Shown in pieces: positions 36,768 to 51,992 of a DNA stretch of 64,000 nucleotides. The position numbers and the translations under genes were made by a program. The DNA comes from Oscillospiraceae bacterium (lineage in GTDB: Bacteria > Bacillota > Clostridia > Oscillospirales > CAG-272). Below the pieces are notes generated by a model. The model was not told where the DNA came from and searched no databases. It was given only the letters and a program-made list of their open reading frames with translations. The number at the start of each line of letters is the position of its first letter. Position 1 is the first letter of the stretch. The DNA lies in NCBI GenBank assembly GCA_015063645.1, contig SVTS01000001.1, positions 23,578 through 87,577 on the forward strand, in the 5' to 3' direction.

Positions 36768-36800
36768 ATAAAAAGCCGCAAATCGCGTGATTTGCGGCTT
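36768..36800 (-). terminator. Rho-independent terminator after second GRE gene
   Basis: aagccgcaaatc-gcgt-gatttgcggctt stem followed on the minus strand by TTTTTA. Confidence 0.65.
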
Positions 36801-36837
36801 AAGTAAATGATATTGGCAGCGCAGCGGGGATTATTCT

Positions 36838-39024
36838 TTACAATTCAATTTCAGTACGGGCGATAATATTATCCTGCAGTCCTTCTGAAAGGGCTGTGAA
36901 ATAATCGCTGTAGCCGCCTACGCGGACGATGAGATTTCCGTGGTTTTCCGGATGGATTTTTGCATCGAGAAGTTCTTCATGGGAGATCGCGTTGATCGAA
37001 AGCTGCTGACCGCCGCCGGCAAAATAGGTTTTTGCCAATGCGATAAATGCCTGCTGACCGCGCTCTGTACCGAGAATGCTCTTTGAGAACTTCATCTGCA
37101 TGACGTTGCCGCTCTTGGCAAGCGACTGATCTGCGATAAGCACGGAATTGAGCAGAGCTGTAGGACCGTTTTTGTCACAGCCGGGTACTGCACCGATACT
37201 GTCAGCGAGGAGAGATTCGCCTCTCTTTTTTCCGTTGGGCAATGCGCCGATCGCTCCGCCGTATGTGGCAGCGCGGGAGAAGGTACTGCATCCACCGCCG
37301 AACTGACCACCGCGATACGGATGCTTGGTCAGCAGATATCCGTAGAAATGATCGGTGACATTCCGGTAGATTTCATCCACATAGGCACAGTCGTTGCCGA
37401 ATTTATCAAAACTCCTGAAGTCGCGGTACATCCCGTCCCAGCCCTCGAAGTTATTATCCAGCGCATCCATCAGATCCGTCATGGAATATTTATGGGTATC
37501 AAAAACAAAATGACGTACTGCTGCCAGAGAGTCCACAGCATCTGCAAGTCCCTCTGCCAGAATCTGCGCACCGGCATACAGGGGACCGCGGTTTTTCATA
37601 TCAGCACCGCGCTCGATACATCCGAGGATCAGGTTGGAACGGTGGGGATTGGGGGCAATGCGGGACATGATCTCCTGAGTACGGCTTGCCACATCTGTAA
37701 CGGAATCAGTTACATATTCCACCTGCCGGCAATATGCTGCATAAAGGGCTTCATAATCCGCAAACTGTCTCGGATCTCCTGTATCAACGCCAACCTGTTT
37801 GCCACTAAGGGGACATTTACCGCGGTAGAGCGCCATCTCCAGACATTTGGCAAGGCACACTTCCCCGTCTTCCAGTCCCATATGGGATTTGCCGAAAATA
37901 TCGATCTGATTACAGCCGTTCATACAGTAATCGTGGGCATCTTCCGACGGGATCCCAAGTGCTTCCAGCGCGGGACAAACGCATTCGTCATTATACAGAG
38001 CGGGCATGCCGCATCCGGTTGCTATTGCCGCAGCAGCGCTTTTCCAGAGAGCCTCAGGCGTCCCTTTATGGACACGCATGGTTACGTTGGGAGCATCACA
38101 GGCGAATTCACGCACAAGATCCAATACTGCATAGGATACTTCATTGGTCTCGTCATTACCGGCTGCGTCGGAGCCGCTGATGCACAGATTCCACGCTCTT
38201 GTTTTCTTGAACAGATGCCACAGGGCACGCAGGCATTCGCGCCGGTCTTTTTCCTCGGATTTCCGCCAGTACGGGATCATAAACTGATCAAAACGTCCGG
38301 GTGAATCAATTCCGTCTGTACAGAATACAAGCCAGAACATCTGGCATGCTTCAAAGAAATCCTTCGGCGGATTCTGCGGAACACGGGTAAGGGCATCGGC
38401 AATACGTGCAAGACGTGCGCGGTCAGCATCACTCGTGCTCTTCTCCTCCATTTCGGCGGCAAGAGCCTGATAACGTGCAGCGATTGTATCTACGGCATCC
38501 AGCGCGAGCAGAAGTCCGTCGTAGAATACATCTTTTCCGTTATTGACCGTACGGTAATGTGCAATCTTTTTACGCAGACCGTCTGTTCCGTTTTCAAGGA
38601 GAATATCGTATCCTGGATTGGAATGTCCGCCGGTCCAGGCACGCAAGCCGCCTCCCCAACCTGCCTCACACCGGGAAATATTCCATTCTGCCTCGGTTAT
38701 ATGCTCACGCACAGAGGCAACTGTATCTATATTGGCACATTTATCCAGAATCTCTGCCAGTTCTTCGGCGTATTCCGGGTACTGTTCCATATTGCGGCGG
38801 AGTTTATCCTGCTTCACAACAATGCCAATACCGTATTCGAACTTTACGCCGCACGGGTCATTTTCATTGTACCAGCCGGCAAACATATGATCATCCGGGA
38901 TACTGATGGGCATATGCTGGGCGCGGCGGAGAAGTCCGGAAGCGATACGATAGCCAACATCGTCCTTTTCCGCTTCCAGATAGCCGACAGCAAAAGGTTC
39001 TATGGTATTCATATACTTTTTCAT
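36838..39024 (-). CDS. Glycyl radical enzyme (PFL-like fold), second divergent copy, function unknown
   Basis: 728 aa. C-terminal fingerprint LIVRVGGYSDYF (Gly704 codon at 36913..36915). Cys loop CMNGCNQIDIFGK (Cys371 codon at 37912..37914). AAAGGAG RBS. Confidence 0.9.
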   Translation of the reverse strand: MKKYMNTIEPFAVGYLEAEKDDVGYRIASGLLRRAQHMPISIPDDHMFAGWYNENDPCGVKFEYGIGIVVKQDKLRRNMEQYPEYAEELAEILDKCANIDTVASVREHITEAEWNISRCEAGWGGGLRAWTGGHSNPGYDILLENGTDGLRKKIAHYRTVNNGKDVFYDGLLLALDAVDTIAARYQALAAEMEEKSTSDADRARLARIADALTRVPQNPPKDFFEACQMFWLVFCTDGIDSPGRFDQFMIPYWRKSEEKDRRECLRALWHLFKKTRAWNLCISGSDAAGNDETNEVSYAVLDLVREFACDAPNVTMRVHKGTPEALWKSAAAAIATGCGMPALYNDECVCPALEALGIPSEDAHDYCMNGCNQIDIFGKSHMGLEDGEVCLAKCLEMALYRGKCPLSGKQVGVDTGDPRQFADYEALYAAYCRQVEYVTDSVTDVASRTQEIMSRIAPNPHRSNLILGCIERGADMKNRGPLYAGAQILAEGLADAVDSLAAVRHFVFDTHKYSMTDLMDALDNNFEGWDGMYRDFRSFDKFGNDCAYVDEIYRNVTDHFYGYLLTKHPYRGGQFGGGCSTFSRAATYGGAIGALPNGKKRGESLLADSIGAVPGCDKNGPTALLNSVLIADQSLAKSGNVMQMKFSKSILGTERGQQAFIALAKTYFAGGGQQLSINAISHEELLDAKIHPENHGNLIVRVGGYSDYFTALSEGLQDNIIARTEIEL

Positions 39025-48068: not shown

Positions 48069-48926
48069 ATGGAACTGTCTGTCAATGCCAAATACCTGAT
48101 GAAATCCCTGCCCCAGGACGAGAAGCGCACGCACTACGAATGCATGAAAATCTTTGCTGATGCAGGCTTCCGTTATCTGGATTATACACCGAACACCGCC
48201 GGAGAGGACTGGGAAGCCCAGACTGATGCGGTCATGGATGCGGCAGCGCGCTGCGGCATGACGCTGGAGCAATCACATGCCCCGTACAACCGGTACACCA
48301 AGCGTCCCATTGAGGAGTATTCGAAACATATCAGCCGTGCGCTGCAGGCTGCCGCGAAGATGGGCAACAAACAGATCGCGGTGCATGCGGACGACTACAA
48401 CATGGAACCGGATGGCTCCTACAATGCGGAGCACGCCATGGCACAGATGTATGAATTCTGGGCACCGTTTGCGGAGCAGGCTGCATCCCTCGGTGTAAAT
48501 CTCGCCATGGAAACCGTATTTGAAGACCGCAACGGTGTGCCGAAATCCCGTTTCACTTCCCGCATTGAAGAGTTGATGGGGATCATTGACCGCTTCCATT
48601 CTTCGCACGTTGTCTGCTGCTGGGATTCCGGTCACGCTTATCTTGCATTCAAAAACGGCATGCTGGATGCAATGAAGACGCTGGGCAGCCGTATTACCTG
48701 CACGCACATTCACGACAATTATTACGGTAAAGATCTGCATCTGATGCCGTATGAAGGAGAGATTGACTGGACAGCGCACATGCGCACGATGAAGGAGATC
48801 GGATACAAGGGCAATCTGACCTATGAATTTGTCTACGGATGCCGTCCTGCCTGTCTGATTGAGGATTTTGCCGCTATGGCGTACAAGACCGGCATGTATC
48901 TGAAGAACATTTTTGACGAGGAATGA
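48069..48926 (+). CDS. Sugar phosphate isomerase/epimerase (xylose-isomerase-like TIM barrel)
   Basis: 285 aa. Metal-site blocks typical of the family are present: SHAPY, IAVHADD, LAMETVFE, WDSGHAY, THIHDN, LTYEF. Confidence 0.8.
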   Translation: MELSVNAKYLMKSLPQDEKRTHYECMKIFADAGFRYLDYTPNTAGEDWEAQTDAVMDAAARCGMTLEQSHAPYNRYTKRPIEEYSKHISRALQAAAKMGNKQIAVHADDYNMEPDGSYNAEHAMAQMYEFWAPFAEQAASLGVNLAMETVFEDRNGVPKSRFTSRIEELMGIIDRFHSSHVVCCWDSGHAYLAFKNGMLDAMKTLGSRITCTHIHDNYYGKDLHLMPYEGEIDWTAHMRTMKEIGYKGNLTYEFVYGCRPACLIEDFAAMAYKTGMYLKNIFDEE

Positions 48927-48957: not shown

Positions 48958-50226
48958 TTATTTCCGATAGCTTGCGGGATTCTTTTCGAAGCGGTAAACA
49001 CCGTGGCAGTCAGCGGCTGCGGAACCTACGGACAGCCACCAAACACGTGTTTTCTTACTCAGATCGATCGTGCAGGAAGCAACGGACATATCTTCGGCTG
49101 TATCAGCAAGAACGATACCGTTGGGATCGATAATACGTGCGGGTTTCCAGCCTTCCCAGGGATACTTTTCATAGGTGGAACTGGAATTATTGCCGGCAAC
49201 GGCTACATAGACACCGCCGAAAATAGCATGAGCAGTAGACTTTTCGCGGGCATCACCTGCGGTGGGAACAAAGATGATCTCAGCACCCTTGCTGATCAGA
49301 TCCATTGCCGGCTCGGGGAAGTACTGGTCGAAGCAGGTCAGCGTACCGATGCGGCCGAAATCCAGATCAAATACGGGATGCTCATGTCCGGGCGTCAGAC
49401 CGTGCTCTATCTCTCCGACGGTCAAATGAGTCTTATGATACGTGCCGATCACGCTGCCGGTGCGGTCGATGATAGCGGAACTGTTATAGTACTCCGTGTC
49501 TTTTCTCTCCACGAAGTTATAGATGATATTTGTATGATGCTCGACAGCCTTGGCGCGTACCTGCATAATGATAGGACCGTCAACGGTTTCGGCACGTTCC
49601 GGATACTTCATAGGCAGACCGCGACCATACATGGATTCACTGAGAACAACGACATCGGGTTTGCACTCCGCACATTTATCGATAATTTCCAGAATACGTT
49701 CCACGTGCGCTTCTTTGGAATCTGCACGGGGGCGGAAATAACCGATGGCAATTGTTACGGGACGGGCTGCCGGTGCTTCACCGGGAGTAAGAACGGGGGC
49801 ATCCCACACAACATCGGCGATATAGCCTTTCAGGTACAGCTCAACTCTGAGTTTTACACCCTCTTCAGCCACGTCAACCTTATCGGTAAAGAGGTATCCG
49901 TCCTCTGTTTTTTCCGCATAGCGGGCATGATCACGGATGATCATATTACCGTTTTCTTTATAAACGGTATAGAGCACCCACAGATCCGTCTCCTCCTGTG
50001 CCGAATGGCACTTTACGGAGAAATCGTACCAGCCGGGTTTAATATCAATGACCGTCTCCCATTTACCGACAGCATACACATCAGGATTATTTACGCTGAT
50101 GGACAGAGTACCGTTCTCTTCACTTGCGGAAAATTCGGCATACTGCTTGAAGGAAGGAGTGTCGGTCGTCCAGGCAGAGGAACCGGGTGCCGGGAAAAGG
50201 TTCTTGGAATTACAGCAACAAGACAT
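48958..50226 (-). CDS. Carbon-nitrogen hydrolase (nitrilase superfamily) with about 150-aa N-terminal extra domain, paralog A
   Basis: 422 aa. Glu/Lys/Cys triad contexts VVVLSESMY, YHKTHLTVGE and GTLTCFDQYFPE. The N-terminal region (GWYDFSVKCH...) is not part of the canonical fold. Confidence 0.75.
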   Translation of the reverse strand: MSCCCNSKNLFPAPGSSAWTTDTPSFKQYAEFSASEENGTLSISVNNPDVYAVGKWETVIDIKPGWYDFSVKCHSAQEETDLWVLYTVYKENGNMIIRDHARYAEKTEDGYLFTDKVDVAEEGVKLRVELYLKGYIADVVWDAPVLTPGEAPAARPVTIAIGYFRPRADSKEAHVERILEIIDKCAECKPDVVVLSESMYGRGLPMKYPERAETVDGPIIMQVRAKAVEHHTNIIYNFVERKDTEYYNSSAIIDRTGSVIGTYHKTHLTVGEIEHGLTPGHEHPVFDLDFGRIGTLTCFDQYFPEPAMDLISKGAEIIFVPTAGDAREKSTAHAIFGGVYVAVAGNNSSSTYEKYPWEGWKPARIIDPNGIVLADTAEDMSVASCTIDLSKKTRVWWLSVGSAAADCHGVYRFEKNPASYRK

Positions 50227-50261: not shown

Positions 50262-50290
50262 ATTATACATGACGCGCAAATATTTGTCAA
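50262..50290 (-). promoter_or_regulatory. Consensus sigma-70 promoter (TTGACA-17-TATAAT) for C-N hydrolase paralog A
   Basis: On the minus strand, -35 is at 50285..50290 and -10 at 50262..50267. It lies just outside the foldback element. Confidence 0.5.
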
Positions 50291-50337
50291 CACCGATAAT
50301 TGATTTCCTTGAACCTCTTTTTGACCTCTGTGATACA

Positions 50338-50758
50338 AAAAAGCACCGCATTATGATAATCAATGTCATTAACTTAAGGATGTAGATACATCAAAATAAA
50401 CAAATTCAGCTTTTTCCGCGGCGAATGCCGCGGGCAGGGGAAAGGACCATCTCAGGCGCCGAAGTTCCTTTCCCCTGCACCCCAATCTCCTTGGCTTGAT
50501 AGCCGATTTAGGACAACATGCATAAATTTTCGCCCGAAACTTCACCATAGGTGAAGTTTCGGGCGTATTTTTGTTGAAGATATCCATAGGATTCGGCAGA
50601 GGCAAGGAGACAGGGGTGGCGGGGGAGGAAACTTCGCCGTGTGAGATGGTTCCTCCCCCGCCTCGCCGCGTTAGCGGCGAAAAAAGCTGCACTTGTGCAT
50701 ATTGTATACAGTATGTGCTTAAGTTAATGACATTGATTATGATAATGCGGTGCTTTTT
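50338..50758. repeat. 421-bp foldback (MITE-like) element: 41-bp terminal inverted repeats, imperfect palindrome throughout, perfect central hairpin
   Basis: 50338..50378 is the reverse complement of 50718..50758 with 1 mismatch. The inner arms are also recognisably reverse-complementary. The central 16-bp stem at 50531..50565 is centred at 50548, which is the exact midpoint of the element. Confidence 0.65.
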
Positions 50759-50762
50759 GGGA

Positions 50763-51992
50763 TCAGTAGCTTTTCGGATTCTTTTCGAAACGGTAGACGG
50801 AACGTGCTTCAGTCATATTGGCACCTGTGGAGAGCCAATGGCGGCGTACCTTTCTTGAAAGATCGATCACGGCAAACACAACTGCTTCGTCCTCACCGCT
50901 TTGTGCAAGGATTTCTCCGTCAGGCGCGATGATACGGGACGGTGCCCAGCCGTACGGATTCTCCATATTCATACCGCCGACGCAGAAATAGAATCCGCCG
51001 TCCAGTGCGCGGGCGTGACATTTCTCTCTCGCGTCTCCGGCTGTAGGGATAAAGACGATCTCGGCTCCTTTCTTTGCAAGTTCATTTGCCGGTTCCGGGA
51101 AATACTGATCGTAACAGGTCAGAAGTCCGATTCGACCGAAATCCACGTCAAACACGGGATGCTCCCTGCCGGGTGTCATGCCCATTTCAAGTTCGGCCAC
51201 AGTCAGATGTGTTTTGAAATATCTGCCGGCAATTTTCCCTTCGCGGTCAATCAGCAGAGACGAATTATAGATCTCGCCCTCATATTTTTCGTGGAAGTTG
51301 TAGATCAGGTAGCTGTGATACTGCGCCGCTTTTTCGCACATAGCACGGATCATCACGCCGTCTTCTGCAGATTCCGCCTTTTCATGCAGAGGCAAATCGA
51401 CACCGCGTTCATACATGCCTTCGCTCATGAGGATTACATCGGGGTTATATGCACCGCATTTATCCACAATCCGGGTATACACTTCCCTGTTGGATTCCAG
51501 CGTAGCGGCACGGGGTTTCATATAACCGATTGCCACACGCACCTCTCGGGGCGCGGGTACTACGGCAGGTGTGATCACGGGAAGCTCCCAGATGACCTGA
51601 CCGGTATAGCCTTTAAACCACAATTCGGTTTTGCATTTGTGTGCATTTTCCGGCACTTCGATGCGGTCGGTAAAGCGCCAACCGTCCGGTGTTCTCTCCT
51701 CATGCTCCGCGTGATCCCGGATATCGGTTCTGTTGGAATCGGTGTAAATATCGTGGAGTACATATACGTCATGCATATCCGCATCTGTATGGCAGACGAC
51801 GGAGAAATCGTACCAGCCGGGAGCAAGCGTATATTCTGCTTCCCAACGACCTACGCCGTAATGGATGGGATCACTGACAGTAATGGAAAACGTACCGGCA
51901 GCGGAATCAAGAGTTCCGACGGCATAGTTTCTGCATTCAGGTGTAACAAAGCGCCATGCGCCGCTGTCTGCGGCAGGGATCAAATTTTTCAT
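50763..51992 (-). CDS. Carbon-nitrogen hydrolase (nitrilase superfamily) with N-terminal extra domain, paralog B
   Basis: 409 aa, colinear with paralog A. Triad contexts VILMSEGMY, YFKTHLTVAE and GLLTCYDQYFPE. N-terminal GWYDFSVVCH. Confidence 0.75.
   Translation of the reverse strand: MKNLIPAADSGAWRFVTPECRNYAVGTLDSAAGTFSITVSDPIHYGVGRWEAEYTLAPGWYDFSVVCHTDADMHDVYVLHDIYTDSNRTDIRDHAEHEERTPDGWRFTDRIEVPENAHKCKTELWFKGYTGQVIWELPVITPAVVPAPREVRVAIGYMKPRAATLESNREVYTRIVDKCGAYNPDVILMSEGMYERGVDLPLHEKAESAEDGVMIRAMCEKAAQYHSYLIYNFHEKYEGEIYNSSLLIDREGKIAGRYFKTHLTVAELEMGMTPGREHPVFDVDFGRIGLLTCYDQYFPEPANELAKKGAEIVFIPTAGDAREKCHARALDGGFYFCVGGMNMENPYGWAPSRIIAPDGEILAQSGEDEAVVFAVIDLSRKVRRHWLSTGANMTEARSVYRFEKNPKSY

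Follow-up and report, generated by a model that had tools for sequence, protein, structure and literature searches.

The DNA analysed here, referred to throughout as the window, is a 64,000-nucleotide (64-kb) stretch of an uncultured Oscillospiraceae bacterium (assembly GCA_015063645.1, contig SVTS01000001.1, positions 23,578 to 87,577). Two C-N hydrolase genes lie in tandem on its minus strand, an upstream gene encoding 409 aa (50763-51992, stop codon at 50763-50765) and a downstream paralog encoding 422 aa (48958-50226) that is ~50% identical to the first. Between them stands a near-complete palindrome, 50331-50765, whose core is a 375-bp foldback and candidate mobile element (Table 1). The original prediction, made from the letters of the stretch, had described a 421-bp foldback at 50338-50758, placed 4 nt from the stop codon of the upstream gene and 47 nt from the promoter of the downstream paralog, and both distances proved correct.

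Table 1. Coordinates of the features of the foldback locus in the window
Feature	Position	Strand	Description
Consensus promoter of the downstream paralog	50262..50290	-	TTGACA-17-TATAAT, perfect; outside the element; kept in empty-site relatives
Outer inverted repeat	50331-50378 / 50718-50765	.	48 nt, 94% complementary; exact over 23 nt
Terminator of the upstream C-N hydrolase gene, distal half	50337..50349	-	reads GCGGUGC then UUUUUU
Target-site duplication, left copy	50350..50360	.	ATTATGATAAT; 11-nt direct repeat, 11/11 with the right copy
Mobile element proper (putative)	50361..50735	.	375 bp, non-coding foldback; perfect 18-bp terminal inverted repeats at both ends
Left terminal inverted repeat	50361..50378	+	CAATGTCATTAACTTAAG; matches IS4-family ends
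Inner arms	50392-50496 / 50600-50704	.	105 nt, 74% complementary
Left-arm sub-hairpins	1: 50416-50433; 2: 50434-50478	.	inverted repeat detected at 50434-50478
Central hairpin	50531-50546 / 50550-50565	+	perfect, 16 bp; loop ATA centred on 50548
Right-arm sub-hairpins	2: 50618-50662; 1: 50663-50680	.	homologues of the left-arm pair; inverted repeat detected at 50613-50667
Right terminal inverted repeat	50718..50735	-	reverse complement of the left one, 18/18
Target-site duplication, right copy	50736..50746	.	ATTATGATAAT; central G same as in the left copy
Terminator, proximal half	50747..50758	-	reads AAAAAGCACCGC, 4 nt after the stop codon

A repeat search and RNA folding confirmed the predicted architecture of arms, sub-hairpins and a central 16-bp hairpin. 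The folded RNA reached -236.5 kcal/mol (minus strand) and -248.6 kcal/mol (plus strand), whereas shuffled sequences gave roughly -116 and -124 (z = -20.5 and -20.6, with 0/100 shuffles as stable). When the left half was aligned with the reverse complement of the right half, 218 columns were obtained with zero gaps, and the indels originally reported between the arms are therefore absent. Exact-protein look-ups further recovered seven contigs from five other Joint Genome Institute (JGI) samples that carry the locus at 99.9-100% nt identity, each entering one arm from a flank and ending at 50332, 50452, 50464 (twice), 50548, 50615 or 50639. Because separate assemblies reproduce each arm, the two diverged arms are independently confirmed, and the palindrome is confirmed to be no assembly artefact. 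If the window's contig were a chimeric fold-back join, this would account for the fact that all other short-read assemblies break inside the palindrome and that no second contig of the exact strain crosses its centre; however, fold-back artefacts are exact, whereas the arms here are 68% identical, each arm is reproduced by the independent assemblies just described, and complete copies with the same arm-centre-arm order exist on two unrelated contigs (L039 and L040, below). We regard the probability of such an artefact as close to negligible. All the independent short-read assemblies (retrieved loci L001-L007, L024 and L029) stop inside the element, one of them precisely at its centre, 50548, and the foldback is thus a systematic contig-breaker for short-read assemblers. 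Matches bearing the terminal inverted repeat (TIR) in viral and genome collections likewise tend towards the ends of the retrieved loci.

Closer inspection of the palindrome's outer part altered the limits of the element. No target-site duplication had been noticed at first; however, the two TIRs are abutted on both sides by ATTATGATAAT, which is nearly its own reverse complement. We read it as a direct repeat because both copies have G at the centre, where an inverted repeat would give one of them C. Being quasi-palindromic, the duplication had been mistaken for part of the inverted repeat. The 41-nt terminus reported with one mismatch does contain that mismatch, which is this central G, yet it is not all element: its outer 23 nt are duplication and host terminator. 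The host sequence outside the duplication is AAAAAAGCACCGC (50337-50349) on one side and GCGGTGCTTTTT (50747-50758) on the other. Since duplication and terminator halves add 23 nt of host sequence per side, the palindrome appears to be 421-435 bp long, and the mobile element proper contracts to the 375 bp given in Table 1. A Fur-type operator (TGATAAT-N-ATTATCA-like) considered for the outer repeat was dropped, as that sequence resolves into the duplication and an insertion sequence (IS) terminus. A dif/Xer site, a retron msd and an attC site were rejected by eye, the sequences not matching such sites and no associated gene lying near.

Removal of the element together with one copy of the repeat leaves, on the gene strand, UGA UCCC AAAAAGCACCGC AUUAUCAUAAU GCGGUGC UUUUUU. 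This reconstructed empty site is predicted to fold into a stem, GCACCGCAUUA / UAAUGCGGUGC, with a 3-nt loop followed by UUUUUU (-25.4 kcal/mol, z = -7.2), the form of a textbook intrinsic (Rho-independent) terminator. Orthologous loci recovered by homolog searches and contig look-ups provided natural counterparts, four of which (L027, L030, L031 and L028) are empty and have a terminator at the equivalent position; the reconstructed and orthologous empty sites fold alike. In L027, L030 and L031 (~84-88% nt identity) both paralogs stand in tandem, and the alignment jumps from window position 50738 to 50360, so that exactly 50361-50737, the element plus one duplication copy, is missing. Their intergenic region holds just AAAAAATGCACCTC-ATTTTTATACA-GAGGTGCATTTTT and then the conserved promoter, and the loop of their terminator is 11 nt, equal to the 11-bp duplication. 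The fourth locus, L028, has a different terminator and is likewise free of the insert, and two more distant orthologs (L025 and L026) have another gene upstream and lack the element. In GCA_052832705.1 (L028:1669-2223) the upstream paralog matches the window over its 3' 555 nt only, which overlap an opposite-strand gene call, and this paralog appears truncated there.

A search for further copies, for which we used a spurious 107-aa open reading frame (ORF) of the element as a protein query, returned called 'proteins' on four short European Nucleotide Archive (ENA) contigs. On two of these (L039 and L040) the copy is complete, 468 bp long and bounded by the same termini, and on the other two (L041 and L042) it is truncated at one end. 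The flanks of all four are unrelated to the window, which places the family at several loci. Over aligned bases, the copies in L039-L041 are 92-95% identical to the window copy and 89-98% to its arms, and all the other copies retain one 'R-type' and one 'L-type' arm. What sets the 468-bp forms apart is an additional block of nested hairpins in the sub-hairpin-2 loop of each arm, 46 nt in one and 45 nt in the other (L039:231-276 and 467-511, with equivalents in L040; alignment columns 103-148 and 339-383), and L041 has the extra block in one arm only. The pattern suggests an element that enlarges itself by placing palindromes within its loops. Although the original prediction saw no credible ORF, two reading frames, of 107 and 95 aa, overlap the element; neither has a Pfam match, and the same 46-nt and 45-nt indels between copies speak against a coding role. 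For annotators, this means that the 107-169-aa 'proteins' called inside the element are spurious.

Phage and plasmid collections held no BLASTN match to the whole element, viral scans with 25-mers from each arm gave 0 matches, and the terminal 18-mer gave 5 viral matches, all near the ends of the retrieved loci. Two metagenome pattern scans returned nothing and also missed JGI contigs known to bear the first of the two patterns (L001-L003), and these negatives say little because the collection evidently does not contain this organism. Pfam searches of the genes beside the other copies yielded nothing informative. A partial tRNA gene lies at the contig edge of L039 (L039:1-52; Rfam tRNA, 31.7 bits), 86 nt from the MITE-like copy, and the two flanks of the L040 copy form base pairs with one another ahead of a T-run, much like a further terminator.

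These data bear directly on the earlier alternative of a long structured RNA or insulator that evolved in place between the paralogs and is not mobile. Such an origin would suit the extremely stable fold on both strands, the placement exactly between stop codon and promoter, and the compensatory changes that maintain the sub-hairpins (described below). However, relatives in which both paralogs, the terminator and the promoter are retained lack the structure at this locus, it is present at unrelated loci, and it has IS4-family termini and a flanking duplication. With empty sites on the one hand and copies at other loci on the other, the element is not a single-copy structure conserved at this locus. 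Rfam 15 offered no match either: for the window region at E<=10 the best hits were microRNA models far below threshold (28.9 vs 110 bits), and the copies in L039-L041 at E<=0.01 gave none save the partial tRNA in the L039 flank. The structured RNA alternative is thus unsupported, and we consider a locus-specific origin very unlikely.

The ends of the element connect it with IS4-family ISs. A 23-mer common to both ends, ATAATCAATGTCATTAACTTAAG, has exact matches in 16 species-representative genomes (L008-L023) from several phyla, with Nitrospirae, Desulfobacteria/Desulfobacterales, Lentibacillus, Niallia, Coprococcus (Bacillota), Bacteroidota, Treponema and Tenericutes/Acholeplasmatales among their titles, and the likeness among these sequences ends after 23-32 nt. 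Because the search pattern demanded ATAAT beside the terminus, the true number of elements must be far larger than 16 genomes suggest. In a Treponema metagenome-assembled genome (MAG; L022) the motif stands 55 nt upstream of an intact 431-aa DDE transposase (PF01609) that scores 167.5 bits against the NCBIfam model NF033592, 'IS4 family transposase' (cut-off 115); the opposite end of this IS is the same 18-mer with 2 mismatches, and its flanks form a 9/10 direct repeat. Degraded relatives of this transposase follow the motif in L008 and L021. The Treponema transposase is 35-40% identical to transposases annotated as 'IS4-like element IS1675 family', and IS1675 itself, on a Lactococcus plasmid (L037), carries CAATGTCATTAAGTTAAG at both ends, 1 mismatch from the window 18-mer, and is flanked by a perfect 10-bp duplication, GAGTATACCC. 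Short terminus pairs that lack a transposase are also flanked by 10-bp duplications, perfect in L014 and L016 and 8/10 in L023 and L011. The IS4 subgroup has been assigned the end signature -AATR--------WTW----, a 5'-NA terminus and target duplications of 10-13 bp (PMC2266710, Table 1). In a by-eye comparison with that table CAATGTCATTAACTTAAG fits the signature, with AATG at positions 2-5 and TTA at 14-16, and the window's 11-bp duplication falls within the range. A DDE transposase with a YREK motif is characteristic of the family; no transposase homolog was detected in the 64-kb window (tblastn, best E = 0.58), as expected for a non-autonomous derivative.

Several further observations concern this IS group. 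The 18-bp terminus is identical across phyla though the associated transposases are just 35-42% identical. In the literature searched, neither of the terminus 14-mers was found, 12-mer matches led to unrelated papers, and IS1675 was mentioned merely in passing. A preference of the group for hairpin loops is unsupported: the reconstructed empty sites of the six other elements with identifiable duplications gave z values of -1.7 to +1.2. An inward-pointing hairpin with a T-run lies a few bases inside the left terminus of IS1675 (L037:201-290) and of a Paenibacillus IS (L038:230-320), and the same arrangement occurs just inside the terminus of the transposase-free L009, L010, L015 and L017. It may be a built-in terminator that shields the transposase gene from outside transcription.

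Collectively, the IS4-type termini, a duplication of the length seen in the family, the empty sites and the copies at unrelated loci lead us to read 50361-50735, with a probability of about 90%, as a 375-bp MITE (miniature inverted-repeat transposable element) with IS4-family (IS4/IS1675-type) termini, inserted in the loop of a terminator. This agrees with the original prediction of a non-autonomous foldback or MITE-type element, and the sequence has the usual attributes of one: it is <500 bp long and non-coding, has TIRs, a direct repeat and empty sites, and occurs at several loci. A transposase supplied from elsewhere would have moved it by IS4-family cut-and-paste into the AT-rich loop of the upstream hydrolase gene's intrinsic terminator, 11 bp of which would have been duplicated. 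The foldback itself arose through inverted duplication of one half and not by simple internal deletion of an IS, because the end-to-end homology of autonomous relatives is limited to 18-26 bp. In the transcript, the insert, self-complementary along its whole length, would fold and rejoin the halves of the terminator stem beside the U-run, so that transcripts of the upstream gene may still largely be terminated; the consensus promoter of the downstream paralog is kept. With the terminator halves rejoined and that promoter kept, the insertion would be nearly neutral, which fits its persistence in two strains.

A number of points weigh against this interpretation. Within the near-palindromic 11-bp duplication a single base, the central G, distinguishes a direct from an inverted repeat, although the 11-nt loop of the orthologous empty terminators favours a duplication. 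The complete copies in L039 and L040 show no recognisable target-site duplication, for which chimeric assembly across a repeat longer than the k-mer, or later rearrangement, is a plausible cause. The other copies sit on short metagenome contigs, and one copy is present in the 64-kb window, the part of the host genome to which the search was limited. Within the host lineage (Oscillospiraceae/Ruminococcaceae MAG) the searches turned up no autonomous partner IS, and mobilisation in trans is accordingly presumed.

The element is also present in a sister MAG, GCA_045586085.1, whose flanking genes show ~96% nt identity to the window, where it occupies the same loop in the opposite orientation. This was seen from both flanks: L024, which runs from the upstream gene through the terminus, is 93.5% identical to the left arm of the window in plus-strand reading and just 78% identical to the arm occupying the same position in the window, and L029, which runs from the downstream gene, starts with the window's right arm in plus-strand reading at 97.5%. 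The two junctions, GCACCGT-ATTATCATAA/CAATG and CATTG/ATTATCATAA-T-GCGGTGC (slashes mark the element boundary), fit exactly a 10-bp duplication, ATTATCATAA, and a separate insertion in the same loop. The element has thus been dynamic since the divergence of the two strains. Sequence divergence proved uninformative as a discriminator between a flip and a second insertion, the arms being 95.7% and 99.2% identical against 96% for the flanks.

An invertible segment had been offered as another alternative, and the sister strain raises the question of whether the locus is a reversible DNA switch, in which the segment flips in place and its orientation decides between a stop inside the element and read-on to the downstream paralog. 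The opposite orientation between identical flanks, observed independently on both sides, would be the expected product; the exact inverted repeat of 23 nt (48 nt at 94%) could serve for recombination; and in-place inversion of Correia MITEs has been reported (PMC10969869, its ref. 52). The central terminator-like hairpin is moreover directional and conserved among copies, with its T-run antisense to the genes in the window and sense in the sister strain, and its loop varies between TAT in some copies and ATA in one other, a change that small hairpin-mediated inversions would bring about. Against this stand the 7/7 contigs of the window strain, from five samples, which all have one orientation, the opposite one occurring only in a strain that is ~4% diverged. 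The junctions of the sister strain differ by one base, just as a separate insertion with a 10-bp duplication predicts, and a flip requires an extra 1-nt deletion exactly at the boundary. The downstream gene's consensus promoter lies outside the element, no promoter-like site was found inside it, and no recombinase is present among the Pfam-annotated neighbouring genes, the remainder of the window not having been screened for recombinases. The invertible segment thus keeps the opposite orientation in its favour; the junctions, however, fit a second insertion at least equally well. We consider a switch improbable, and a second insertion (or excision and re-insertion) in the sister strain appears slightly more likely than an in-place flip.

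The two 188-nt halves of the foldback are 68% identical (128/188) without gaps and are diverged inverted copies of one another. In both arms 23 base pairs are predicted, of which 16 are identical and 7 are changed on both sides and still pair, with 0 changed on one side; had the 58 arm differences been scattered at random, ~11 one-sided changes would be expected, and the chance of none is ~5 in a million. A pattern of this kind would follow from selection on structure as well as from hairpin-templated correction at replication. On the plus strand alone the central hairpin leads into TATTTTTGTT, and it looks like a terminator in one direction, from the left arm to the right arm. The same hairpin in L039 has a stronger T-run, TCTTTTTTTG. 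Comparison of the central hairpins (L039:357-391, L040:496-530, L041:360-394 and window 50531-50565) revealed a compensatory A-T to G-C change in the stem (GAAAC/GTTTC vs GGAAC/GTTCC) and, in gene-strand orientation, a loop of TAT in the window and L039, ATA in L041 and TTC in L040. The TAT and ATA loops are reverse complements, as expected from hairpin-mediated micro-inversion. A broader proposal, that of a MITE family whose hairpins are kept by selection or templated correction, which grows by nesting and whose in-place inversion, through the one-directional central terminator, couples or uncouples the hydrolase paralogs of an uncultured gut or rumen bacterium, has in our estimate an outside chance of being right as a whole.

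The Pfam-annotated neighbours of the element comprise a regulator with GntR and periplasmic-binding domains, a solute-binding protein, the C-N hydrolases, a TIM-barrel protein and a GDSL lipase. In both hydrolase paralogs a stretch of ~150 aa at the N terminus matches no Pfam family. The TIM-barrel gene (48069-48926, plus strand) adjoins the downstream paralog on the opposite strand, and in other Clostridia many hydrolase homologs are ~680-aa fusions with an AP_endonuc_2/xylose-isomerase-like TIM barrel (PF01261 + PF00795; proteins P0007-P0038). This fusion/fission pattern suggests that TIM barrel and C-N hydrolase may act together. Elsewhere in the window, at 36798-36815, CTTAAGTAAATGATATTG matches the IS4-type terminus with 2 mismatches, and no partner terminus lies near; by our own estimate ~0.003 such 2-mismatch termini would be expected by chance in 64 kb. 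It is situated on the minus strand just 3' of the stop codon (36838) of the gene at 36838-39024 and directly 5' of that gene's terminator hairpin, GCCGCAAATC-ACGC-GATTTGCGGC followed by TTTTT, and may represent the lone remnant of some other element of the same IS group.

What the locus offers is an element of an ordinary kind that is unusually well documented, through empty sites, other copies and a copy in opposite orientation. The element represents a MITE family not described before, with ends of the IS4/IS1675 type, and is a case in which the geometry of a terminator may outlast the entry of a foldback into its loop. For strains of an uncultured Oscillospiraceae it provides a clean, datable insertion marker, and the 7 double and 0 single changes, nested hairpin insertions and loop flips form a small natural data set for the evolution of palindromic DNA. 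The element explains the assembly breaks at the locus and does not overturn current understanding.

Among known systems, the IS4 subgroup and its IS1675-like members (De Palmenaer, Siguier and Mahillon 2008, PMC2266710) share with the element the terminal 18 bp, the 10-13-bp range of duplications and the AT-rich target, but these ISs carry a transposase gene, measure 1.4-1.65 kb and have ends alike over 18-26 bp, whereas the window element is 375 bp long with fully homologous halves. Under the working definition of a 2024 review (PMC10969869), a prokaryotic MITE measures <500 bp, lies between genes, bears terminal repeats and, in young copies, direct repeats, and yields a stable stem-loop transcript. 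Chunjie of Geobacter, Correia/CREE of Neisseria and ERIC of enterobacteria resemble our element in being <500 bp, non-coding and intergenic with terminal and direct repeats (PMC10969869), and further in their very stable stem-loop transcript and the size variants among copies. Like Chunjie, it lies between co-oriented genes without destroying them, and like Correia elements it is found in both orientations at one site. It differs from all three in its IS group, in nested hairpins and in terminal repeats shorter than its total self-complementarity; Correia elements also have an internal promoter, and none was detected here.

MIC231 and other IS231-derived cassettes of the Bacillus cereus group, cited in PMC2266710 (its refs 2-3), are likewise non-autonomous, have IS4-family ends and are mobilised in trans, but they carry passenger genes and form no foldback. 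The IS231 end, CAT-------AA--TAA---, also has a AACTTAAG-like block; the window termini fit the IS4 subgroup better, position 3 being A, not T. IS1397/ISKpn1 and IS110-type elements insert into the hairpins of repetitive extragenic palindromic (REP) sequences and bacterial interspersed mosaic elements (BIMEs), with strict hairpin specificity and transposases of other families. PMC12288879 deals with ISPpu9 in REPs. Our element shares with these inserters its entry into an extragenic palindrome, the halves of which are left on either side; unlike them, most examined insertions of its IS group lie in ordinary AT-rich DNA. SPRITE, finally, is similar as a small repeat tied to a terminator-like structure, but it is itself terminator-like, whereas the window element splits the terminator of its host gene and adds a second, directional terminator-like hairpin at its own centre.

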